Notes: generated from the sequence alone by a model not told the origin. A DNA stretch of 63,021 nt from Candidatus Thorarchaeota archaeon (GCA_048882045.1 JBHLRZ010000020.1:1-63021), one strand, 5' to 3'. Shown: positions 25,161 through 38,201, numbered from the stretch's first letter. Program-made: numbers and translations.

Positions 25161-26234
25161 ATGGAAATGCCGATTGTGAAATTCATCGACAGGGAAGGTC
25201 TCGAACGGGAGATTGAATTCGACTATGAAGAAGAGGACACTTTGGACCTCTCCAAAAAGAAAGTCGTTTCTGTTGACTTTGATTCAATAGTTCAGATTCC
25301 TGAGATCTATGAAATCAACTTGGGGAGTAATGCGTTAGAGGAGATTGACCTCTCTCCTCTAGCTGGGTACCCAACACTTGAGCGGTTCAGTCTTTTCAAG
25401 AACCAATTGAAGAAAATAGAACTATCTCCACTTGCAGATTGTCCAAATCTGCAAGAACTGAACCTTGGCACAAATCAGTTCGAATCAATCAATCTCAAAC
25501 CTCTTGTCAAAGCAGGGAAATTAAAACGGCTTAGACTATTCAACAATGAACTTCTCTCAGTAGACCTAAGTCCATTATCAAACTGTCAGAGTCTTGAAAC
25601 ACTCGAGATTGAAAACAACAAGCTAAGTTCAATAGACCTGACACCCCTGTCATCCTGTATCGAACTTCTTCAGCTGAATTTAATGTATAACAGGATATCC
25701 AAAATCGACCTTGAGCCTATTTCTAGCTGCACAAATCTCAAGTTCCTCTACCTCCATCACAATCGGATCCAAAGGATAGATATCACACCACTAAGGAATT
25801 GTCCTGATTTCAGGATCCTCCGACTAGGTGGGAACCAGTTGGAAACAATCGATCTTTCAGGTCTGTCTTCTTGCAAGGAGCTAAGAAGATTAGGTTTAGC
25901 AATGAACAAGATACTACAATTGGACCTTTCACCACTTAGTAATGCTGAAAATCTTTCAAGTCTAGACATTGCAGGAAATCGGCTTACTAAAATCGATCTA
26001 ACTCCACTAGAGAACTGTGAGGAGTTGGGAGAACTCTACCTTTTTAGTAATCATCCTGAAGAAAATGAGTTTGAATCTCTAGACATTACCCCTTTGTTCA
26101 ACTGCTCCGAGCTTGAAGATTTTGGAGTCAGTGATGAAACAGAACTTAAGGCTGACAAAAACCTCCAAGACGAGGAAGACCTTCCATTAGCTTTGGAGGA
26201 ACTTTTAGACGACGATCGGATAACTTGGAAATAG
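25161..26234 (+). CDS. Leucine-rich repeat protein (internalin-like)
   Basis: About 11 regular 23-aa repeats LxxLxLxxNxLxxIDLxPL. Confidence 0.9.
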   Translation: MEMPIVKFIDREGLEREIEFDYEEEDTLDLSKKKVVSVDFDSIVQIPEIYEINLGSNALEEIDLSPLAGYPTLERFSLFKNQLKKIELSPLADCPNLQELNLGTNQFESINLKPLVKAGKLKRLRLFNNELLSVDLSPLSNCQSLETLEIENNKLSSIDLTPLSSCIELLQLNLMYNRISKIDLEPISSCTNLKFLYLHHNRIQRIDITPLRNCPDFRILRLGGNQLETIDLSGLSSCKELRRLGLAMNKILQLDLSPLSNAENLSSLDIAGNRLTKIDLTPLENCEELGELYLFSNHPEENEFESLDITPLFNCSELEDFGVSDETELKADKNLQDEEDLPLALEELLDDDRITWK

Positions 26235-27568: not shown

Positions 27569-28504
27569 TCACTTTTCTTGACAAGTAAACACGAAATCGT
27601 TCTCGTTCACGTATTTGTATGCCTGATAGGCTGCGTGAACGCCTTCAGCAACTCCTGTGATAGCCTGCTTAAACTCGCTATCTACAACATCTCCAGCCGC
27701 AAAGACTCCTTCAATGTTAGTTCTGCTTGAGCGATCAATGATGATCTCTCCTTTGTCATTGACTTTCACACCCATCTTCTTTGCTAATTCAGAATATGGA
27801 ATCCCACCGATTGCGATGAATATTCCATCGAGTGGAAGAGTGTCTGAGTCATTGTATGGCTTATCGAGCTTGACACCGATGACCTTCTCGCTTCCGAGGA
27901 TCTCAGTTACATTTGTCTGAGTGATGATCTCAATCTTTGGTTCTTTCTCAATTCGGCGGCCATTCACAGGTTCTGGTCTTATCCTTTCACGTCGATAAAC
28001 CATGTAGACCTTAGGACAGTACTTAGCAAGAAGAAGTGCCTCCTTTGCAGCACTGTCACTTCCTCCAACAACTCCTACAACCTTGTCTTTGTAAAGAGGC
28101 GCATCGCACAATGCACAGTAGCTCACTCCTTTGTTCTTGAGTTCTTCATGACCAGGAACCTCGAGCTCTTTTTCCTTGAGTCCGGTGGCAAACAGGATAG
28201 ATTTTGCGAGGAATGTCTTGTTCTCCGTTACAATATAGAAGAATTTGTTTTTGTTTTGGAAGACGTCGACTACTGTTCCGATTTCAATGGTAACAGGATA
28301 GTCCAAGGCATGTTCCTTGAGCTTGTCTGCAAGCTCCTGACCAGTGAGTTGAATGAAACCAGGATAGTTTGCGACATCGTCTGTGAGAGTTATCGTTCCT
28401 CCATCAACATTTCCAATGACTGCAACACTGAGATCAAGCCTTGCAGCATACATGGCGGCACCAAAACTTGTAACACCTGAGCCTATAACTACCAAATCGT
28501 ACAT
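27569..28504 (-). CDS. trxB: Thioredoxin reductase
   Basis: GSG, NYPGF, GVSYCALCD, GG.DSA..EA, T..EGVFAAGD. Confidence 0.93.
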   Translation of the reverse strand: MYDLVVIGSGVTSFGAAMYAARLDLSVAVIGNVDGGTITLTDDVANYPGFIQLTGQELADKLKEHALDYPVTIEIGTVVDVFQNKNKFFYIVTENKTFLAKSILFATGLKEKELEVPGHEELKNKGVSYCALCDAPLYKDKVVGVVGGSDSAAKEALLLAKYCPKVYMVYRRERIRPEPVNGRRIEKEPKIEIITQTNVTEILGSEKVIGVKLDKPYNDSDTLPLDGIFIAIGGIPYSELAKKMGVKVNDKGEIIIDRSSRTNIEGVFAAGDVVDSEFKQAITGVAEGVHAAYQAYKYVNENDFVFTCQEK

Positions 28505-28508
28505 CAGA

Positions 28509-28763
28509 TCACACTCCGAGTTTTCGTTTCAGTCTACGTTCAGTTCTTCTATCAAAGCCAATGAATACATCATCTCCGATAATGATTGCAGGGATAGCTA
28601 ATTGACCACTCACTTCCTTGAGTTCATCAATAATCTCAACTGAATCGAGGACACACTTTTCCTCAATCTCTACATTGTTCTCCTCAAGAAATGCCTTCAC
28701 CTTTGCAGAATGTGGACACTCCGGTGCTGTGTAGACTGTCGCCTTGGTCATTGTCTTGTTCAA
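28509..28763 (-). CDS. Glutaredoxin/NrdH-like protein (CxxS)
   Basis: VYTAPECPHS, SGQLAIP, IGFD. Confidence 0.85.
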   Translation of the reverse strand: MNKTMTKATVYTAPECPHSAKVKAFLEENNVEIEEKCVLDSVEIIDELKEVSGQLAIPAIIIGDDVFIGFDRRTERRLKRKLGV

Positions 28764-28892
28764 CCTCTAGAGCTTTGAACGGGAAACACCGTGTAACCAC
28801 CACTGATATAGATTATGAAGTGTGTCCCTTTGAGAACACCCTTAAGTAGAGGTCCATATTCCTTATCATTCGTTATTTGGAGTGTACTGGAA

Positions 28893-29369
28893 ATGGACAA
28901 GGATGAAACTCTCGCTTTCATTGACAGACAGATCAACCTCGAAATGAAGATCATTGAGATTGTTGAGAAGAATGTTGCAGAACTGGGAAACGCTTTCGTG
29001 AAAGAACTCCTGTTAGCTGTTTCAACAGATTCGAAAAAACATGCTGAGCTTTTGAAATCGTTAAGGAAAGCTGTTGAAGGTCCAACTCCATTCATCAGTG
29101 AAGGTGAAAGAGACAAGATTGCCAAAGGCATCGAGGCGCACATCAAGATGGAAGAACAGGCTGTTGAAACCTATGGCAAACTTGCTGAGAAGACTGACAA
29201 TGACCAAGTCAAGACGATTGCTATGATGATAAGAGAGGATGAGCTTAGACATCACGCACTCTTGAAGGAACTCCATAAAGCAGTGATTGAGCCTGAAACC
29301 CTCACTGAAGACATGATCTGGGATACTATGTGGAAAGACTCGCCGTGGAAAGGAAGTCCTGGTGGGTAG
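28893..29369 (+). CDS. Ferritin-like / rubrerythrin-like protein
   Basis: DS.KH, HIKMEE, DELRHH diiron motifs; likely ATG at 28893. Confidence 0.8.
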   Translation: MDKDETLAFIDRQINLEMKIIEIVEKNVAELGNAFVKELLLAVSTDSKKHAELLKSLRKAVEGPTPFISEGERDKIAKGIEAHIKMEEQAVETYGKLAEKTDNDQVKTIAMMIREDELRHHALLKELHKAVIEPETLTEDMIWDTMWKDSPWKGSPGG

Positions 29370-29371
29370 AA

Positions 29372-29920
29372 TCACTCTTGTGTATACCTATCCACTATTG
29401 CCATGAATCCCTCATCTAGACGGTCAATACCAATCCCAGTTCTCGCTGAGATAAGTTGGCCGCCCATTCTGTACTTTTCCATGACATATCGCATTTCCTC
29501 ATTGATGAAGTCCATTCGCTCTGAATCGATAAGGTCTACTTTGTTAGCAACAATCATGAAGCGTTTCCCATCTCCAGACTCCATTCTCAGGTTGCTGTTT
29601 TCTTCGATGGCTGGGATCCAATATCCTTCAAGACTATCGAGAGTCTGCATGCGTGTCACATCAAAGAATAGCAGTCCAACTGTTGCACCCCTGATCATCG
29701 ACTTCATTTGATCGATAAATCTGAGCTGACCCCCGAAATCCCATATTGAGAGCGTAACGTCGTGTCCTGACGCTGTGACGACCTTTTTTGTATCGAAGCT
29801 GGCTCCGATTGTAGTGCGAAGAAAGTTAGGGTCTGGAAAATTGCCTGTTGTATAACGCTGAGTGAACGAGGTTTTCCCACACTCAGTGTCACCCAGTACA
29901 ACAGCTTTCAGAATCTTCAC
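29372..29920 (-). CDS. Rab-like small GTPase
   Basis: G1 GDTECGKTS, G2 TTIGASF, G3 WDFGGQ, G4 NKVD, G5 ISARTG; no C-terminal prenylation motif. Confidence 0.92.
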   Translation of the reverse strand: MKILKAVVLGDTECGKTSFTQRYTTGNFPDPNFLRTTIGASFDTKKVVTASGHDVTLSIWDFGGQLRFIDQMKSMIRGATVGLLFFDVTRMQTLDSLEGYWIPAIEENSNLRMESGDGKRFMIVANKVDLIDSERMDFINEEMRYVMEKYRMGGQLISARTGIGIDRLDEGFMAIVDRYTQE

Positions 29921-29930
29921 TTCTTACACC

Positions 29931-31391
29931 TTATTGTTCCAATTTTATTGAACCGTCTTCTTCTAATCCATATTCGCTTAGTTCATCGAGATGTTTGACA
30001 GTTCTTGATAAACGTGCTGTTACCGGTGGACTACTGAAGACTGTTATTACACTTGCCAAGGATACTAATGCAATAGCAACTATTGGAATTGCTGGAGGCT
30101 CTGGAGGAAGACTGTCCGAGAACATCGTAATCATTGCTATCATAAGAGCTGAAACAATAAACATCATCAATCTCCTCGCTGCAGCAACTCCTCCTGCTCT
30201 TGCTATTCGCATTGATAGTCGAATGAACATGAGCGTACCAAGAATACTAACTACTACAATTGATGCCCATATTAGAGCATTAGTTGCATTGACAGTAAGG
30301 GGAATAGCTGGATCGATGATGATGTCCGGATAGGTCAGATAGGCTGCAATAACTCCAAAGATAACCATTGCCTCACGGGTTAATGTCTGTACCCAATCAC
30401 CATAGAGAGTGGAAGCAGCGGCAAGCATGAACGCGATAATTGCACAAGAACCAAGGACAACATTGACCCAGGTAAGATATTGGTTCCATACAAATCTCTG
30501 GTTTAGATATAAAGTCCAAGATAGAGAACGTGTAGAAACAAGAAGTGCTACGAAAGTGATGACAGCTCCCAAAAAAAGTGGCATTCTGGCACCAGTTTGA
30601 TCTGCTTGTTCGAGGAAGTAGTCCAGTGGTGCTATCAAACATAATGCTGCGAATATTTCAACAACAGCATAGTAAAAGACGGGCCAACTTCCCACCCGGA
30701 AAGAGGCTATCAATAGTGGAACTCCGAGTGTTATCGTGAAGTACAGGATGAAGGTTGCCAAGGTGTATCTCCATGGTTTCCTTATCGAACTGAAAACTGT
30801 AGCTGCTACGATTAGGGGGAGGACTTGTAGGATATAGTATTGTGGATGGGCAAATGTCCAGCCTGTCGTTGCAATGACCCAGGTCAATATATACAAAATG
30901 AGAATCAGAAATAAGGATGCTGAGAATGTCGATGGGTTCTCGCGGAAAAGCACCGCAGAAAGGTAAATTGATGCTACCAACAAAATAGAAAGTCCAATGA
31001 TAATGAAATAAAGCGTGTATCCAAAGAATTCTCCTACAAGATTATCAACAACAACTCCAATGACGATGAAAGCTGTTGTGATTGTACCCAGCTTTGCGCG
31101 AGTAGAAGCAAAGAGAATCCATATTTCAGCGATGACGATGGCTCCGAGAAAGAAAGCTCCAGTACTAGTCATCATGAACCTTAGTGGTTCATACATAATC
31201 ATCAAAATGGCGAAAGCCATTGCAATACCAGTCATTGAATATGCTATCAACGCGCGTCTTGTACCTAGACCAATATCTGAATAGATTTCCCTGACTCGTC
31301 TCGCAAAAATGAGAAGAGACAATAATAGAATCAAAATGATGATATTTCCTGCGTCGAGATGTATTACATCAAAATCAATCGGTATTTGCAT
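29931..31391 (-). CDS. Polytopic (~14 TM) membrane protein of unknown function
   Basis: Hydrophobic throughout; paralog of 31416-32855. Confidence 0.8.
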   Translation of the reverse strand: MQIPIDFDVIHLDAGNIIILILLLSLLIFARRVREIYSDIGLGTRRALIAYSMTGIAMAFAILMIMYEPLRFMMTSTGAFFLGAIVIAEIWILFASTRAKLGTITTAFIVIGVVVDNLVGEFFGYTLYFIIIGLSILLVASIYLSAVLFRENPSTFSASLFLILILYILTWVIATTGWTFAHPQYYILQVLPLIVAATVFSSIRKPWRYTLATFILYFTITLGVPLLIASFRVGSWPVFYYAVVEIFAALCLIAPLDYFLEQADQTGARMPLFLGAVITFVALLVSTRSLSWTLYLNQRFVWNQYLTWVNVVLGSCAIIAFMLAAASTLYGDWVQTLTREAMVIFGVIAAYLTYPDIIIDPAIPLTVNATNALIWASIVVVSILGTLMFIRLSMRIARAGGVAAARRLMMFIVSALMIAMITMFSDSLPPEPPAIPIVAIALVSLASVITVFSSPPVTARLSRTVKHLDELSEYGLEEDGSIKLEQ

Positions 31392-31415
31392 AGCATTACC
31401 TCCATACTTTACTCC

Positions 31416-32855
31416 TTAGTATTCTATCTTTATCGACCCATCTTCTCCGACGCCAATCTTACTCACTTCATCCAACTTCTCAACAGTCCTTGTTATACGA
31501 GCCCAGACTGGAGGACTACTCAGTAAGGCTAGACTTCCTGCAAACAACAGTAGTGAAATAGAGGCGATTGGAATATCAGGAGGAACAGGTGGGATAGTGT
31601 CTGAGTACATTGAAACGACTGCAATCATCAGTGCAGAGGTTATAAATGCCATCAGACGTCCAGCAGCTATTCGACCTCCTGATCTGAAGATTCGTATTGA
31701 AAGTCGAATGAAGAACAATGTACCAATGGCAATCACTACTCCAAGGGCTAACCATACCATTGAATTTGAAATGAACGTGGGTTGAGTATAAGGAAATACG
31801 AGCAACACCGCAAATGTGGTGAATATGAGCATTCCCTCTCGAGTTATCATTAGTGCCCAATCACCATGAAGGGAGGACACAGCGGCTAGCATGAATGCAA
31901 TGATTGCCATAGAACCAATTATTACATCAACCCAGACTAGGTATTGATTCCATACAAGTCCATTAGAAATAAAGACGGCCCATGACAGTGAATGTGTCGC
32001 TACCAATAGTGCCACCAACGATACTACAGCACCAAGATACAACGGTGTCATTGTCCCAGTTTCAACAGCTTGATCAAGGAAATAGTTGAGAGGAGCCATT
32101 AGACAGAATGCTGTGAACATTTCAACTCCGACGAAAAAGAAGATTGTCCAACTACCAACATCAGCGGCTGACGAAAGTAGAGGTGTACACAGAGTGAATG
32201 TAAAAAGCATAAGGAACACTGCGATAGTTGTTCTCCAAGGCTTCCTGATGGAGCTAAAGACTGTTGCAGCAACAATGATAGGAATGACTTGCAATACATA
32301 ATACTCAGGATTGTCGAAGATCCACCCTGTGGCTGCAATAATCCATGTTGACATGTATAGTATCAAAACAACGAGTAGGGATGCTGAAAAAGTCGAAGGA
32401 TTTTCTCGAACTAGAACAAATGCAAAGTACGCTGAACCCAGCATGAGAAGTGGCAAACCAATCATCATGAAATAGAGGGGAAATCCGAAAAACTCCTCAA
32501 GGAAGTTGTTGGCGTAAACTCCAATTATAATGAGGACTATGACAACCGTTCCTTGATTGGCTCTTTTCTCTGGTTGAAGGATATATAGCTCTGCAATCAG
32601 AATGGACCCAAGAAAAAATGCTCCTGTTCCAGTGACCATGAAACGCATGAGCTCTGAAACAGCAGTAAACGTTGCTAATGCCATTGCAATACCTGACATT
32701 GCATACGCCATTAAAGCACGTCGAGTGCCAACTCCGATGTCAGGATAAATCTGTCTGACACGATTTCCAAATAGCATTAGTGAAAGTGCAAGAACTACGA
32801 CTATTACGTTTCCAGAATCAAGAAGCGCTGAATAGAAATCGATGGGAATTTGCAC
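31416..32855 (-). CDS. Polytopic (~14 TM) membrane protein of unknown function, paralog
   Basis: Shared motifs MQIPIDF, RENPSTFSASL, FSSIRKPWR, WNQYL.WV, EDGSIK. Confidence 0.8.
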   Translation of the reverse strand: MQIPIDFYSALLDSGNVIVVVLALSLMLFGNRVRQIYPDIGVGTRRALMAYAMSGIAMALATFTAVSELMRFMVTGTGAFFLGSILIAELYILQPEKRANQGTVVIVLIIIGVYANNFLEEFFGFPLYFMMIGLPLLMLGSAYFAFVLVRENPSTFSASLLVVLILYMSTWIIAATGWIFDNPEYYVLQVIPIIVAATVFSSIRKPWRTTIAVFLMLFTFTLCTPLLSSAADVGSWTIFFFVGVEMFTAFCLMAPLNYFLDQAVETGTMTPLYLGAVVSLVALLVATHSLSWAVFISNGLVWNQYLVWVDVIIGSMAIIAFMLAAVSSLHGDWALMITREGMLIFTTFAVLLVFPYTQPTFISNSMVWLALGVVIAIGTLFFIRLSIRIFRSGGRIAAGRLMAFITSALMIAVVSMYSDTIPPVPPDIPIASISLLLFAGSLALLSSPPVWARITRTVEKLDEVSKIGVGEDGSIKIEY

Positions 32856-32859
32856 ATAA

Positions 32860-33234
32860 TCAACCCCACAGACTGCTAATCTCTCGCCCTCTCTTTCTCA
32901 GGGCTTTGGCTATTATCTTAGTTAGCCATTCCTCAGTAGCATTTGTATTCTCCATGATGAGTGAAAGTACAGAACCAGCTTCCTTCTCGTTATCAGCTTC
33001 GCATATGTACAAAAACTCAGTTCTCTGTATGTAACCAACGACTCCCTTGTCAGACTTCATATAGTTCGCAGCCTCACCGTTAGATGGAGAACCGTCTCGT
33101 TGGAGAGCTGTTGAAACCAATTGGACAATGCCAGTAAGAAGAGCTACTCTCTCTGCACTCTGCTCTTCTGGCGGATAAAGTACCTTAGATTCCATATTGT
33201 CCAATACTACACGAACTACCATTCTTACAACCAT
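32860..33234 (-). CDS. Longin-like small protein
   Basis: Predicted beta-beta-alpha-beta-beta-beta-alpha-alpha order (MVVRV, KVLY, ALLTGIVQLV, NYMKS, VVGYIQ, FLYICEAD, EAGSVLSLI). Confidence 0.55.
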   Translation of the reverse strand: MVVRMVVRVVLDNMESKVLYPPEEQSAERVALLTGIVQLVSTALQRDGSPSNGEAANYMKSDKGVVGYIQRTEFLYICEADNEKEAGSVLSLIMENTNATEEWLTKIIAKALRKRGREISSLWG

Positions 33235-33533
33235 CAGGATTTACCTCCAAAGGCCTTTGTTAGCCAATCAATTTCTTTCGAGCCCTCATCTTTAGACTTA
33301 GTAGACTCCTTTTCAGATCGATGTGGGACAACAATGTCTCGAATACCTAATCCTTCGCCATTACGAAGATTGTACAAAGTTACTAGTAATTCATGATTGT
33401 TGATACATCGAACGATAAGTGTAGGTGAGCGGCCCTCATTCTGAATTCTGTGTTTGACTGCTTCGGCCTCGTCGTCACTAATTTGAACTAGGGCGTTGCC
33501 TTTGCATTCTGGACATCTGAAGAGAATTTCCAT
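33234..33533 (-). CDS. Small Zn-finger protein
   Basis: CPEC ... CINNH; stop overlaps the next start codon. Confidence 0.7.
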   Translation of the reverse strand: MEILFRCPECKGNALVQISDDEAEAVKHRIQNEGRSPTLIVRCINNHELLVTLYNLRNGEGLGIRDIVVPHRSEKESTKSKDEGSKEIDWLTKAFGGKS

Positions 33534-33739
33534 GTCAGTGCGCAGCCTCTAAGTATCTGGTCCCTTTTTTTCTGTGGAATCCAATTACTTAAGCCTATGT
33601 TGTTGAAAGTTACAGAATTGATGTTAAAAAATCGAAAGTTGTTTTCATAGATATCGCAACAAGAATCAAGCTTTTTTGCGATAGCTGAATGCTTATCTTA
33701 AAAGTTGCAACCTGAAACTTCACTTATAATGAGGATGAG

Positions 33740-35644
33740 ATGATGACGGTTGAAGATGTGAAGCGGACTGATAGAGGTCCAGCTCTAATGTTAGCCAATG
33801 AGGCAGTCGTACGAGGTGCTCTTGAGGCTGGTGTAAAGATTGTAGCTTTCTACCCTGGATCTCCGGTTTCAGAAATTCTTGATACATTCGGAGAAGTACT
33901 CGACCATTTCCAGGACTACAAGATGCATATTGCTGCAAACGAAAAGGTCGCGCTTGAGACTGTTGCTGGAGCTTCGATGGCGGGAATGAGGTCTTTTACT
34001 TCAATGAAAAGTGTTGGAATGAATGTTGCGAGTGATTCCATGTTCAGTATAGGATATACAGGACTCAACGCTGGTTGTGTTTGTCTGATTGCCGACGATC
34101 CTTATGCACATTCATCACAGTCAGAAGAGGATGGAAGATTCTATGGAGAGTACGCATATGTCCCCATGCTTGAACCTTCGACAGCACAAGAGGCTCTCGA
34201 CATGACTAAATGGGCATTTGAAATATCAGAGAAGTTCAAGACTCTAGTCATCATCCGAACAACTACAAGGGTTAACCATCAAAGAGGCATGGTGAACCTG
34301 GGGAACCTTAATCGTAAACCATTCAAGAAAAATAAGTGGGCTGATGTGAAGAGACAATACTTCACTGTTGGTTCAGTTGCACGAAGACTCAAAGCTAAAC
34401 TTCTCGAAAAGACTGCGGAGATAAAGAAAGAGTTCAATGCCACTGAGTTCAATAGAGTTGTACCAGGAAGCGGCAATATGGGGATACTTACAGCTGGTGT
34501 CTGTTTTCTCCATGTTAAGGAAGCACTGAAAAATCTTGAGATTGAATTACCAGTCTTCAAACTTGGCACGACATTCCCACTTCCTGATGAGAAACTTGCT
34601 GATTTTATTCGACCACTCTCAACACTAATCGTTGTTGAGGAACTTACACCGTATCTTGAAACTAGAATCGCAGCTATTGCGAAAACAGTCAATCCTTCAT
34701 TGAACATTGTCGGTAAGAAGAGTGGACACTTCAGTGAAATGCTGGAGTATAATGTTCCAATTGTAGAAAAAGTACTAGCAGAGGTCACAGACAAAAAGAT
34801 CAGCTTGGATTATGATGCAGTATTGAAGAAAGCTGAGAAGCTTAAGGAGATTCTTCCAGAACGACCTCCAATCTTCTGTCCTGGGTGCCCGCACCGTGGT
34901 ACACTCTGGGCCTTCAGACAGGCATTGCAGCAGCTTCGTATCAGGAACAACATAGTGTTCAATAATGACATAGGTTGCTACTCTATGGCATTTCTCCCGC
35001 CCAATGAGTTCTCTGATTCAATGTTGGCAATGGGAGCATCATTAGGTATCTCTGCAGGAATGGAACTAGCGCTCGAGGACAAGATCATTGCAATGGTAGG
35101 GGACAGCACACTATATCATGCAGCCTTACCGGGAATCGTGAATCTCATTCATCATAACTCGAATGTTACATTATTCGTCCTGGATAATTCCGTCACAGCA
35201 ATGACAGGACAGCAGTTCAATCCTAATTCTCCCTTCGATGCAGGAGGACACCCAGCGAGAAAGATAAACATGGAGAAGATGTTTGAGGCGCTAGGTGCAA
35301 ACACGGTTTCTATAATAGACCCCTACGAAACCAGAGACTGTATTGGTACAATAAAAGAAGCAATCGAAGCTGATGGATTCAATGTGATAATCTCAAGACG
35401 TGATTGCGCACTCTATGGAGACCGAGAGAAGAAGAAGCGTGGAGAAAAGATTGTCCCAAGCGAGAATGTGAAAGACACATGCAAAGGGCTCTATGTTTGT
35501 GTCAAGGAGTTCTATTGTCCTGCAATAACAATAGATGAATCAGATGCAAAGATGGTCATTCAGAGAGATCTATGTGACGGTTGTTTGGAGTGCAGACAGG
35601 TATGTCCTGTTGATGCACCAAGACAAGTGGAGGTGAAGAGATGA
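33740..35644 (+). CDS. iorA: Indolepyruvate:ferredoxin oxidoreductase alpha subunit
   Basis: NEA..RGA.EAG, YPG.P.SEI, NEKVALE, RPP.FCPGCPHR, DIGCY, GDST..H, C-terminal 4Fe-4S. Confidence 0.95.
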   Translation: MMTVEDVKRTDRGPALMLANEAVVRGALEAGVKIVAFYPGSPVSEILDTFGEVLDHFQDYKMHIAANEKVALETVAGASMAGMRSFTSMKSVGMNVASDSMFSIGYTGLNAGCVCLIADDPYAHSSQSEEDGRFYGEYAYVPMLEPSTAQEALDMTKWAFEISEKFKTLVIIRTTTRVNHQRGMVNLGNLNRKPFKKNKWADVKRQYFTVGSVARRLKAKLLEKTAEIKKEFNATEFNRVVPGSGNMGILTAGVCFLHVKEALKNLEIELPVFKLGTTFPLPDEKLADFIRPLSTLIVVEELTPYLETRIAAIAKTVNPSLNIVGKKSGHFSEMLEYNVPIVEKVLAEVTDKKISLDYDAVLKKAEKLKEILPERPPIFCPGCPHRGTLWAFRQALQQLRIRNNIVFNNDIGCYSMAFLPPNEFSDSMLAMGASLGISAGMELALEDKIIAMVGDSTLYHAALPGIVNLIHHNSNVTLFVLDNSVTAMTGQQFNPNSPFDAGGHPARKINMEKMFEALGANTVSIIDPYETRDCIGTIKEAIEADGFNVIISRRDCALYGDREKKKRGEKIVPSENVKDTCKGLYVCVKEFYCPAITIDESDAKMVIQRDLCDGCLECRQVCPVDAPRQVEVKR

Positions 35645-36276
35645 GCAGCACAAAGGATACATTCAACATCATGTTCGCAGGCGTGGGTGGCCAAGGACTT
35701 ATGCTACTCTCTGCGATACTGGGAAAAGCAGCTGTGGACTCAGGTCTTAAAGTGATGACTGGAGAACAGCACGGTCTTTCCCAAAGACAGGGCTCGATTT
35801 ATGTTCACTTCCGGATTGGAGAACCGATATCCCCTTTGATACCCTATGGCAAGGCAGACATGATGATTGCGATGGAAGCCACCGAAGCTCTCAGATATGT
35901 AGAATATCTGAAAGAAGATGGGGTGGTAATCATGAGTAATCGTATCATGCCATCAGTTACTGAAACCAAGAATGTTGCTTTGGATAAAGAGAAGAAGACC
36001 AAATATCTCACGGTCGATCAGGTAGTTGAGAAACTAAAGCAAGTCACGAAGAATGTCGTACTCCTCGACTCCCTCGATCTCGCTATTCAGGCAGGAAATG
36101 CAAGAACCGAGAATTCAGTTCTTGTTGGAGCAACGGTCGCTTGCGCAGACTTTCCAATTCCAGCTGAAGAGGTTCGCAAGGCTGTTCTCGCCTTAGTGCC
36201 ACCTAAGACAGTAGATGCGAATTCTAAAGCATTCGACCTGGGCCGAGAGGCAGGGAGTACCTGCCTTGGAACCTGA
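35641..36276 (+). CDS. iorB: Indolepyruvate:ferredoxin oxidoreductase beta subunit
   Basis: GVGGQG, HGLSQR.GS, SPLIP.G.AD; ATGA overlap with iorA. Confidence 0.95.
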   Translation: MSSTKDTFNIMFAGVGGQGLMLLSAILGKAAVDSGLKVMTGEQHGLSQRQGSIYVHFRIGEPISPLIPYGKADMMIAMEATEALRYVEYLKEDGVVIMSNRIMPSVTETKNVALDKEKKTKYLTVDQVVEKLKQVTKNVVLLDSLDLAIQAGNARTENSVLVGATVACADFPIPAEEVRKAVLALVPPKTVDANSKAFDLGREAGSTCLGT

Positions 36277-36452: not shown

Positions 36453-38201
36453 GTGGAACATATGACCAATCTATATCATCGTGCGCTGAGTATCGGTAAT
36501 CTAAATTCAGAGGCGAAGCAGTTCATTTCTCGAGCAACTAGCCTAATACTTACATACAGCTTCGTAGTGATGTTGACAAACACCTTCCTGATTCTTCAAG
36601 CTTTGGAGTTTGTAACTCTAACAGAGCTCGCCATGATCTTGGCTATTCAGTTCGTTATACAATCAATTGCTAGTTATCCCGCTGGTGCTATTGGCGATTG
36701 GATTGGACAACGGTGGGTTTTGTTTACTGCTGCAATCTCCTACGGAATTGGATTCATCGTAATTTCACAAGCAATTGATTTCCTGTCAGTTGCAATTGCA
36801 TTCATCTTAGTAGCGTTTGCTCAGAGTCAAGAGACTGGCACATACATCGCATGGTTTGATACAAACTACAAGATCTATACAGAAGGGGACGATAAGGATA
36901 GACGTACATATTCTCAGTTCTATGGTAAATTCACAATGTTCCAAGAGCTCCTGACAGCTTTCTCTTTCATCCTAGGGGGAATACTTCTGAGTTTGGTGGA
37001 TCGTCAGATGTTGTTCCTCTTCCAAGGGTTTCTGCTCATAGCTGTTTCACTATTACTCTTGAGATTCATCCAAGATCATAAAGATCTGAAACGTGAAAAG
37101 AGGAACCTAAATGCGTACTTCAGATATCTTCGAGGTGGACTAACAACAGCAGCTCGAAATAGGACACTGAGATTGATGATTCTGGGACTGATGATATCTG
37201 GTGCAGGTTGGGCTATTTGGGGAGGTCTAATTCTCTTCCCCCTCTATGCTAGTTATGCCTTTTCAGACACAGGAACTGCATTGCTCCGATCAAGTATCTT
37301 CATACTAGGCGCTCTTTGCGTTGGGTTAGCTGGTACCATATCTAAGCGAATAGGAAAATTACAGAAGTGGCTTGCGATAGCAGTCTTCCTCACAGATTTT
37401 GTCTTTTTCATTGGGATGTACATCATGTTGTCTTTGAATCCAGCTCCTTCGAGTTTCATGTGGATGTCCTTCTTCATTGTGATTCTGACCTTCACATTGG
37501 CATTTGGCCCTCGATTTTTGGCTGATGTATTAAGACCTCGGTTCTACTTGGATGTCATTCCTGACGAAAATCGAAATGCTGTCTATTCGCTCATTCCGAC
37601 TTTAGTTATGGTTGTAAGTATCTTCGCAGTGCCTACTGGCGGACTTATGATAGACATTTTGGGTCAAGAAACAACAATAATGATTCTAGCTTTGAATGGT
37701 TTGATTGGATCGAGTATCACTGCTGTGGCAATCTATAGACACACTGTCGAAACTGAGATAACAACTGAAACAATTGACCTATGTTGTCCAATCTTTCCAA
37801 GCAAACTAATAGATACTCAGACAATCGTTCCACTATCTCTCCCATGCTGTTGGTCTTTTGACCCAATCACCGAATACATCTGGAACCAACTTCGAGAAAC
37901 TGCACTAGCTGATGAGGTGATCACAGAGGAAGAGGCCATAATTATCGATAGAGTCACACTTGATGTGAGAGCCTATGGTGAAGTTCTCAAGCAAGTACTA
38001 GAAGACGGAAAGATAGACGAAACAGAGCAGAAGTCGCTAATTCAAGCTCGTGATCAAATTTGGATTGAAGCGAATAATTCAGCAATAAAATCTGGACAAC
38101 TGAGTGAAGACGCACAACAGATCCTATCGAAACTTTCAGTCCTGCTGAAGAATATAGATACCAAACGTCTATTCCAAACAACAGAAAGTGTGTCAGACTA
38201 G
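36453..38201 (+). CDS. MFS transporter with C-terminal soluble helical domain
   Basis: YP.GAIGDWIGQR motif A; 12 TM; IPDENRNAVYSL; C-terminal CCP..P..PCCW plus DEVITEEE/DGKIDETE repeats. Confidence 0.8.
   Translation: MEHMTNLYHRALSIGNLNSEAKQFISRATSLILTYSFVVMLTNTFLILQALEFVTLTELAMILAIQFVIQSIASYPAGAIGDWIGQRWVLFTAAISYGIGFIVISQAIDFLSVAIAFILVAFAQSQETGTYIAWFDTNYKIYTEGDDKDRRTYSQFYGKFTMFQELLTAFSFILGGILLSLVDRQMLFLFQGFLLIAVSLLLLRFIQDHKDLKREKRNLNAYFRYLRGGLTTAARNRTLRLMILGLMISGAGWAIWGGLILFPLYASYAFSDTGTALLRSSIFILGALCVGLAGTISKRIGKLQKWLAIAVFLTDFVFFIGMYIMLSLNPAPSSFMWMSFFIVILTFTLAFGPRFLADVLRPRFYLDVIPDENRNAVYSLIPTLVMVVSIFAVPTGGLMIDILGQETTIMILALNGLIGSSITAVAIYRHTVETEITTETIDLCCPIFPSKLIDTQTIVPLSLPCCWSFDPITEYIWNQLRETALADEVITEEEAIIIDRVTLDVRAYGEVLKQVLEDGKIDETEQKSLIQARDQIWIEANNSAIKSGQLSEDAQQILSKLSVLLKNIDTKRLFQTTESVSD

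Follow-up and report, generated by a model that had tools for sequence, protein, structure and literature searches.

A co-inherited zinc-ribbon, longin-fold, polytopic membrane protein and Rab-like GTPase cassette of Asgard archaea as a probable membrane-associated small-GTPase switch module

Asgard archaea possess dozens of small GTPases and many proteins of the roadblock/longin type, and little is known of how regulators and GTPases are paired. In MK-D1, a strain in culture, operons generally do not contain the genes for GTPases and their regulators (Tran et al. 2024, PMC10933270), and the pairing is therefore hard to predict. A 63,021-nucleotide (nt) stretch of DNA from a Candidatus Thorarchaeota archaeon (GCA_048882045.1, JBHLRZ010000020.1:1-63021; hereafter the window, with positions counted from its first letter) carries five adjacent genes for a zinc-ribbon protein, a longin-fold protein, two polytopic membrane proteins (A and B) and a Rab-like GTPase. 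The question raised by this locus is whether these genes form one system and, if so, what such a system might do. Here, the four families are shown to be inherited, duplicated, diversified and lost together as one tight cassette, and they probably encode one membrane-associated small-GTPase switch module, in which the membrane protein would act as receptor or platform, the longin protein as regulator of the GTPase, and the zinc ribbon as adaptor or output. No published account of a zinc ribbon–longin–membrane protein–GTPase operon was found in the literature.

All five open reading frames (ORFs) lie on the minus strand and span 33533-29372, in the order zinc ribbon, longin-fold protein, membrane protein A, membrane protein B and GTPase (Table 1). 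The zinc-ribbon and longin genes share a single base in the stop/start sequence TGATG, and the remaining gaps measure 4, 24 and 10 nt; the ORF coordinates thus agree with the five co-oriented genes and the spacing read in a first-pass annotation, which had been made from the sequence alone. The names carried by homologues of the encoded proteins also point to Thorarchaeota. The distribution of the families was followed through 400 Asgard genomes, 85 from the window's GTDB family and 315 from other families. The profiles of the longin family and of the transmembrane (TM) protein family match the identical 40 of the 400 genomes, with none discordant. These genomes all belong to one GTDB family (39 of the 85, plus the window's own genome) and represent 14 genera, and neither family was matched in any of the 315 genomes from elsewhere. 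By their coordinates, every full longin match (48/48) is immediately followed, on its own strand, by a gene of the membrane family. Because the genomes are identical for both families, and every longin gene precedes a TM gene, the arrangement is far beyond chance. The membrane family comprises just 60 clusters among 1.84 billion representative proteins, among which no fused or split forms were found, the full-length matches all being 440-482 amino acids (aa) long. Twenty loci fetched from 14 genera were compared together with the window, and the order zinc ribbon, longin, one or two TM genes and GTPase is kept in every complete cassette (22/22), including tandem cassettes in some genomes. The cognate GTPase subfamily scores 278-327 bits and occurs in one Asgard family only, the next-best Asgard GTPase reaching 165 bits; in the four cassette genomes without a cognate GTPase, a contig edge lies beside the membrane gene. 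An apparent occurrence in a second Asgard phylum, GCA_014728035.1 (WJMJ01000148.1, locus L002), was rejected, as it carries the same genes as G337:C121 (L014) of the window's GTDB family, and its NCBI label 'Candidatus Lokiarchaeota archaeon' is probably wrong.

Three cassette types (I, II and III) are distinguished on the membrane-protein tree. The trees of the GTPase, longin and zinc-ribbon proteins return the same types with as few changes as possible, I and II forming clades. Since more than one type can be present in a single genome (G325, G324 and G337), and the window's genus contains both I and II, this congruence is not simply that of the species phylogeny, and the trees indicate that the four cassette genes diverge together as units. 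The TM gene has been duplicated within the cassette twice independently. An old tandem duplication in type III is represented by downstream copies that form one clade (support 99) across six genera, while the duplication in the window is younger, B being sister to a group of A and the single-copy orthologue of a congener (support 100). The ancestral cassette, as judged from these trees, had one TM gene. Hence the heterodimer of membrane proteins that the first-pass annotation had proposed does not hold as a general feature, the second copy in the window being young and lineage-specific. A reduced form is found in genus g12, in which the two loci fetched (L025:6668-7643 and L026:5973-6911, from genomes G372 and G377) retain only the zinc-ribbon and GTPase genes, again placed on the chromosome with iorAB on one side and the rubrerythrin-like gene on the other. 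In G375, of the same genus, a cognate GTPase was found with no longin or TM match, and the reduced form is there inferred from the searches.

The site itself suggests an explanation without any common function, namely that unrelated genes have been kept together by inherited synteny, since throughout the family the cassette is found at a single fixed locus, flanked by rubrerythrin-like and iorA genes, and these neighbours are also conserved by descent. On one side of the operon (27569-29369), a rubrerythrin-like gene convergent with the GTPase gene is followed by glutaredoxin and thioredoxin reductase genes, and on the other (33740-36276) lies a divergently oriented 2-oxoacid:ferredoxin oxidoreductase pair (POR_N/TPP and POR; iorAB), both groups being conserved across the family. 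However, gain, loss and duplication affect the four genes as a block and leave the flanks in place, the paralogue types are congruent in all four trees, the stop codon of one gene and the start codon of the next overlap or are separated by a few nt, and the same architecture is found with different neighbours in another class. Synteny as the sole cause was already disfavoured and is given almost no weight here. A functional tie between the cassette and the flanking redox and iorAB genes was also rejected, because these genes are conserved there within the family only, are not co-oriented with the cassette, stay when it is absent and differ around distant cassettes; they look like inherited synteny, outside the system. 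An anti-phage defence system was considered as well and set aside, since PADLOC gave no match for any of the five operon proteins.

Cassettes of very divergent sequence and the same four-part architecture occur in another Asgard class (genome G001, L027:3825-6678) and on metagenome contigs (L031 and L032:4325-7120), where a zinc protein, a protein of 135-138 aa, a polytopic protein of 494-505 aa and a Ras-family GTPase are encoded in this order. Their zinc protein matches the zinc-ribbon family at E 4e-12. The atlas look-alikes of the 135-aa protein comprise clusters of roadblock and of longin proteins, TRAPP sybindin, and 271-283-aa proteins of Thorarchaeota with Arf/Ras GTPase domains, and the 505-aa protein comes nearest, by its features, to a Thorarchaeota cluster of 472 aa. 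That the distant TM and longin proteins are homologous in sequence to the families of Thorarchaeota was rejected, the E-values (0.013-0.61) not being significant, and the two sets are look-alikes only by language model and structure. A rearranged version is present at L028:6140-8686, in a genome of the same order as the window, with the zinc-ribbon and GTPase genes convergent with the TM gene and a longin-like gene.

Besides its match to the Pfam family Ras (Table 1), the GTPase matches Roc (5.7e-19). Its motifs are complete (G1 GDTECGKT, TT in switch I, G3 DFGGQ, G4 NKVD and G5 SAR), and residues G15, K16, T17, D61, G64, Q65 (the catalytic Gln), N126, K127 and D129 are invariant across 21 orthologues. 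A C-terminal Cys motif for prenylation is present in none of the 21, nor is there a conserved Gly2 for myristoylation, Gly being found at position 2 in just one of them. The closest solved relatives are the Thorarchaeota Rab 7ezb (5.2e-18), followed by Ypt7, Rab7, Rab28 and Rab27, and MglA is not among the 60 best. Because of the G1-G5 motifs and the Rab matches, the protein is classified by sequence as Rab-like, yet it lacks the prenylation site expected of a true Rab. This is what the first-pass annotation had described for the single gene, and it holds throughout the orthologues.

The 124-aa protein was modelled with AlphaFold2 (AF2) from 35 homologues, with a mean predicted local distance difference test score (pLDDT) of 87.4 and a predicted template modelling score (pTM) of 0.81. 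The model has the topology b-b-a-b-b-b-a-a, which is the longin order of elements (E3-10, E16-20, H27-46, E57-61, E64-70, E74-80, H83-95 and H101-123, E denoting strands and H helices), and the family ends in an invariant E..LW(G) C-terminus. In a structural search independent of Foldseek over 48,161 chains, the best 50 matches, which are those considered here, are exclusively longin, roadblock or SRX domains. The top match is the longin domain of DENND1A bound to Rab35 (6ekk_A, Z 10.0), followed by CPLANE (7q3d_C, Z 9.9) and the TRAPP core (3cue_C, Z 9.5); 8zwc_B (Z 8.7) and 8jbe_B (Z 8.6) also score highly, BLOC-3 and Mon1-Ccz1 are among the leaders, and a Lokiarchaeota longin protein (8yqg_B) is matched at Z 8.2. 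The longin matches (Z 8.2-10.0) align 110-117 residues and span residues 1-124, whereas the roadblock matches (Z ~7-8.3) stop near residue 100 and leave the last helix uncovered. Foldseek returned the same families with weak E-values. By sequence, neither longin, Robl_LC7 nor any other family was matched at E ≤ 1 in Pfam or NCBIfam, and no PDB sequence matched below E 0.2. The protein is thus longin-like at the level of the modelled fold, as the first-pass annotation had supposed. Longin and roadblock proteins serve as platforms for guanine nucleotide exchange factors (GEFs) in DENN, TRAPP and Mon1-Ccz1, and as a GTPase-activating protein (GAP) in MglB. Because of these roles elsewhere, the longin protein of the cassette may, by analogy, be a regulator that sets the nucleotide state of the GTPase, either as a GEF-type platform (as Mon1-Ccz1, TRAPP and DENN) or as a GAP-type partner (as MglB).

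Membrane proteins A and B are paralogues, as first read, with 56% identity over their full length and with RENPSTFS, SIRKPWR and an EDGSIK tail in common. That they are polytopic was also correctly read; the proposed count of about 14 helices was not, since the AF2 model of A (pLDDT 85.5, pTM 0.82) has 15 membrane helices, followed by a C-terminal cytoplasmic helix and tail. The modelled layout is 7+1+7, with one seven-helix (7TM) bundle at residues 1-206, a linker helix at 207-233 and a second 7TM bundle at 235-445. The second bundle (residues 235-464) matches ADGRL3, a G-protein-coupled receptor (GPCR) of the adhesion type (8jmt_A, Z 15.1, 216 residues aligned), and the first (residues 1-209) the TM domain of a GABA-B receptor (9jqx_A, Z 13.9, 204 residues aligned), values at the level that the search tool calls typical for helical bundles, and they are therefore read as receptor-shaped bundles and not as homology to GPCRs. 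In the wide structural search, the best 50 chains are all GPCRs or designed GPCR-like folds, and the best matches to GPCR TM domains span 190-216 aligned residues; re-examination of the Foldseek candidates gave GPCR folds again, plus one other 7TM protein, alkaline ceramidase. An atlas search returned bacterial hypothetical proteins with a single 7TM bundle, GPR155, TMEM87 and the 7TMR-DISM sensors. The modelled membrane protein is thus a pair of seven-helix bundles of receptor shape with a linker helix between them, one of the options that the first-pass annotation had named. No Pfam (E ≤ 1) or NCBIfam family was found for A, including any 7tm sequence family, HisKA or HATPase. Among 59 non-redundant family members, the predicted inside loops carry 18.7 Lys and Arg residues per protein against 1.9 for the outside loops; because of this asymmetry, a topology with the N-terminus outside and the C-terminus inside is predicted to fit both bundles. 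The best-conserved segments of the family are the cytoplasmic loops RENPSTF (after TM5) and SIRKPWR (after TM7). The predicted extracellular N-terminus MQIPIDF (32835-32855) is also among the better-conserved segments, which is unusual for an outside tail; in an alignment of 24 sequences its Asp6 is invariant and its Phe7 nearly so. An internal duplication giving rise to the two bundles was rejected, as the profiles of the N- and C-terminal halves match at E 0.064 (global) and 0.46 (local). An opsin or a PAQR-type enzyme was likewise rejected, as neither a conserved Lys in TM7 or TM15 nor a conserved cluster of His/Asp is present.

With 15 TM helices and no annotated function, the membrane proteins could also be thought to move a solute, in which case the GTPase and longin protein would regulate or report transport, as in SLC38A9-Ragulator-Rag. 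Such a transceptor had been suggested by the first-pass annotation, and A has a weak atlas match (TM-score 0.35 by query) to GPR155/LYCHOS, a transporter-GPCR fusion. GPR155/LYCHOS is a 7TM protein that signals to a longin-containing GTPase regulator. Nevertheless, no transporter fold is found among the best 50 matches in either structural search, Pfam contains no transporter family that matches, there is no internal sequence repeat, and across the 59 members no charged or polar residue is conserved within the membrane. A plain transporter was rejected on the same structural and Pfam evidence, and regulated transport is considered very unlikely.

Since the younger duplication has left two closely related copies, the places where they differ can be compared. 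Between A and B, identity is 0.67 in the cytoplasmic loops and 0.60 in the inner helix halves, against 0.49 in the outer helix halves and 0.54 in the outer loops. This outer-side divergence is compatible with a pair of receptor variants, or with a heteromer, acting on a single GTPase. In the proposed mechanism, the 15-helix protein would be a membrane-embedded receptor or platform, and its docking face would be formed by the cytoplasmic loops RENPSTF and SIRKPWR and by an Arg-rich loop after TM13; the GTPase, devoid of an anchor of its own, would be held at the membrane solely through the complex. A more specific version, in which the double-7TM protein detects a cue from outside or from the membrane and forms, with its longin partner, an exchange platform for the Rab-like GTPase, is put forward tentatively, as one that may well prove wrong. 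A rather different use of the same parts would be a trafficking or membrane-remodelling platform, in which the double-7TM protein merely anchors the GTPase-longin pair, as in SR-alpha SRX/SR-beta or Sec12-Sar1, and the GTPase drives a membrane process. Consistent with this are the further matches of the longin model to SRX domains of the signal recognition particle (SRP) receptor (6frk_y, Z 8.0; 1nrj_A, Z 7.0) and to small subunits of vesicle-coat adaptor complexes, the trafficking Rabs that are the best relatives of the GTPase, and the failure to find a ligand-binding domain or a conserved pocket residue in the membrane family. Conversely, the cassette has no linked gene for a coat, tether or SNARE protein, and its flanks are redox/oxidoreductase genes, which differ in distant cassettes; repeated duplication of the TM gene with divergence on the outer side fits sensing better than anchoring; and the cassette is dispensable. 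Anchoring is a doubtful, though serious, candidate.

The zinc-ribbon protein has four presumed zinc ligands, C7, C10, C43 and H47 (CPxC...CxxxH), which are invariant in 20 family members, and, after a charged linker, a conserved C-terminus (E/D)(I/L)DW(L/V)xxAFGG. Seventeen of the 20 members match almost the full length of the Pfam profile Zn_ribbon_Brz (PF23454) at E ≤ 0.01 (best 6.3e-7), and the ligand pairs are ~30-40 residues apart, as in the Brz-type zinc beta-ribbon. Brz of Halobacterium salinarum is described as a small protein encoded directly upstream of bop (bacterio-opsin) and needed for bop transcription, with Cys11 and His52 essential (PMC2253796). The zinc protein may therefore be viewed as a Brz-type transcription regulator, controlling the operon or acting as its transcriptional output, and not as a structural adaptor; the shared Cys...His ligand pattern, the position of the Brz gene before that of a 7TM protein, and the persistence of the zinc ribbon and GTPase without longin and TM proteins in genus g12 all favour such a role. 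Against it, the protein of the window, at 22.6 bits, does not reach the Pfam cut-off of 27.9 bits, CPxC zinc ribbons abound among small archaeal proteins, and the conserved C-terminal peptide, which is lost exactly where the longin and TM proteins are lost, points to a protein contact. A purely regulatory Brz is thus regarded as unlikely. In genus g12, a Lys-rich tail replaces the DW..FGG motif, and because this lineage has lost the motif together with the longin and TM proteins, the sequences suggest that the GTPase is the counterpart of the ribbon core, and the longin or membrane protein that of the C-terminal tail. In the proposed switch module, then, the core would bind the GTPase and the DW..FGG peptide the longin or TM protein, and the zinc protein would be an adaptor or output. 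It is also conceivable, although we hold it to be a rather long shot, that the whole forms a receptor-to-G-protein switch built of eukaryote-like parts with a wiring known from no organism, in which the zinc ribbon is the output, possibly in transcription as for Brz.

Several points weigh against the switch module and have to be set beside the evidence for it. The likeness of the bundles to receptors is one of shape, not homology, and Foldseek gave no PDB match of A at E ≤ 0.001. Over all positions, conservation is not significantly higher in the inside loops than in the outside loops (p=0.43). The inner-outer difference between A and B is modest and is not seen in the old paralogue pairs, which are too diverged to show such a bias. 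Brz-type proteins are transcription regulators, and by that analogy the zinc protein may not be an adaptor; the correlated loss of its C-terminal motif and of the longin and TM proteins rests on a single lineage. Finally, the cassette is cleanly absent from three congeners of the window (92-97% completeness), in which the rubrerythrin-like and iorA genes are 160-250 nt apart (Table 1), and the module is therefore accessory and dispensable. A membrane-associated switch module of these four components remains the reading that we consider probable.

Table 1. Operon features in the window, and sites without the cassette in the window's genus (genome:contig:coordinates).
Feature	Location	Strand	Basis or content
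Zinc-ribbon protein, 99 aa	33234..33533	-	C2-CH ligands, Brz-like similarity
Longin-fold protein, 124 aa	32860..33234	-	AF2 model and structural matches
Membrane protein A, 479 aa, 15 TM helices	31416..32855	-	AF2 model
Membrane protein B, 486 aa, tandem paralogue of A	29931..31391	-	Pairwise alignment, tree
Rab-like small GTPase, 182 aa, GTG start	29372..29920	-	Pfam Ras 8.7e-24
Divergent intergenic region between the zinc-ribbon gene and iorA, 206 nt, presumed operon promoter region	33534..33739		ORF coordinates, sequence
Empty sites in the window's genus	G356:C79:2744-5357; G362:C2:29545-32200; G340:C26:103432-106023		Rubrerythrin-like gene and iorA, no cassette

Two further genes lie in the surroundings of the operon in the window. 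Upstream, a leucine-rich-repeat protein of 357 aa is encoded on the plus strand (25161-26234), and downstream of iorB a polytopic protein of 582 aa with a soluble C-terminal region of ~150 aa is encoded at 36453-38201.

The cassette provides a pairing written in the genome itself, of one Rab-like GTPase with one longin protein, one membrane partner and one zinc protein; the switch and its likely partners, a regulator and a membrane protein, can thus be identified from sequence and put to the test. Natural variants, with one or two membrane genes, three paralogous types and the reduced form of zinc ribbon and GTPase, may serve as guides for experiments. Were the membrane protein a receptor, the cassette would provide the first archaeal candidate for signaling from a 7TM protein to a small GTPase, and even as a mere anchor it would show a way for a GTPase without a lipid to be kept at the membrane of an archaeon. 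The main expectations of the first-pass annotation were a longin-like 124-aa protein, a gene order conserved in related genomes and membrane proteins outside any known transporter family, and all three were found. Its further idea of a prokaryotic precursor of eukaryotic switching was not supported, the TM and longin families being confined to one Asgard family and two sporadic, divergent lineages, and searches of Pfam and the PDB connecting the sequences neither with eukaryotic GPCRs nor with any particular eukaryotic longin GEF.

Several known systems share part of this design. The membrane protein resembles GPCRs of class C, of class B and of the adhesion type in that each of its halves is a seven-helix bundle with, in the predicted model, the N-terminus outside and the C-terminus inside, next to a G protein; it differs in showing no sequence similarity to them in Pfam, in having two bundles and an extra helix, and in being encoded with a monomeric Rab-like GTPase and not a heterotrimer. 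Brz resembles the zinc protein in being a small Cys...His zinc ribbon encoded just upstream of a 7TM gene in the same orientation, with a Pfam match at family level, but the protein described here carries an additional linker and the C-terminal DW..FGG motif, and its 7TM partner is not an opsin. In MglA-MglB, a small GTPase gene likewise adjoins that of a roadblock/longin-superfamily regulator, and MglB matches the longin model (6hjm_A, Z 7.2; 3t1r_A, Z 6.8); however, roadblock matches cover only residues 1 to ~100, the GTPase is nearer to Rab than to MglA, and a dedicated membrane protein is lacking in MglAB. Over its full length, the 124-aa protein is best matched in structure by DENN, Mon1-Ccz1, the TRAPP core, CPLANE and BLOC-3, and the partner is Rab-like here too, whereas the eukaryotic platforms consist of several longin domains or subunits and have no counterpart of the membrane partner in the operon; the putative regulator of the cassette is a single 124-aa domain with no sequence similarity found in Pfam or the PDB. 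A conserved Asgard operon encoding a roadblock protein similar to LAMTOR1 together with a Rab-like GTPase and a protein with a DENN domain has been described (Liu et al., bioRxiv 10.1101/2020.10.19.343400), which similarly pairs a Rab-like GTPase with roadblock/longin-superfamily proteins; it contains no membrane protein or zinc ribbon and occurs in most Asgard archaea, in contrast to the one family and two sporadic lineages found here. Closest in logic is the actinobacterial conservon, or Mfp operon, whose four genes CvnA-CvnB-CvnC-CvnD encode a membrane sensor, a roadblock/longin-superfamily protein, a small protein and a Ras-superfamily GTPase (PMC4316618), and the reference list of that article includes a 2006 study with a title describing conservon proteins as a membrane-associated heterocomplex resembling a G-protein-coupled system. 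The match is one of logic only, as three defining components differ: CvnA is a histidine kinase, whereas the cassette has a double 7TM protein with no kinase domain (HisKA/HATPase) match; CvnB is a Robl_LC7 roadblock protein homologous to MglB, whereas its counterpart has longin topology and no Robl_LC7 match; and CvnD is of the MglA type, whereas the GTPase here is Rab-like with DxxGQ. The conservon is moreover bacterial, and the present cassette is from Asgard archaea.

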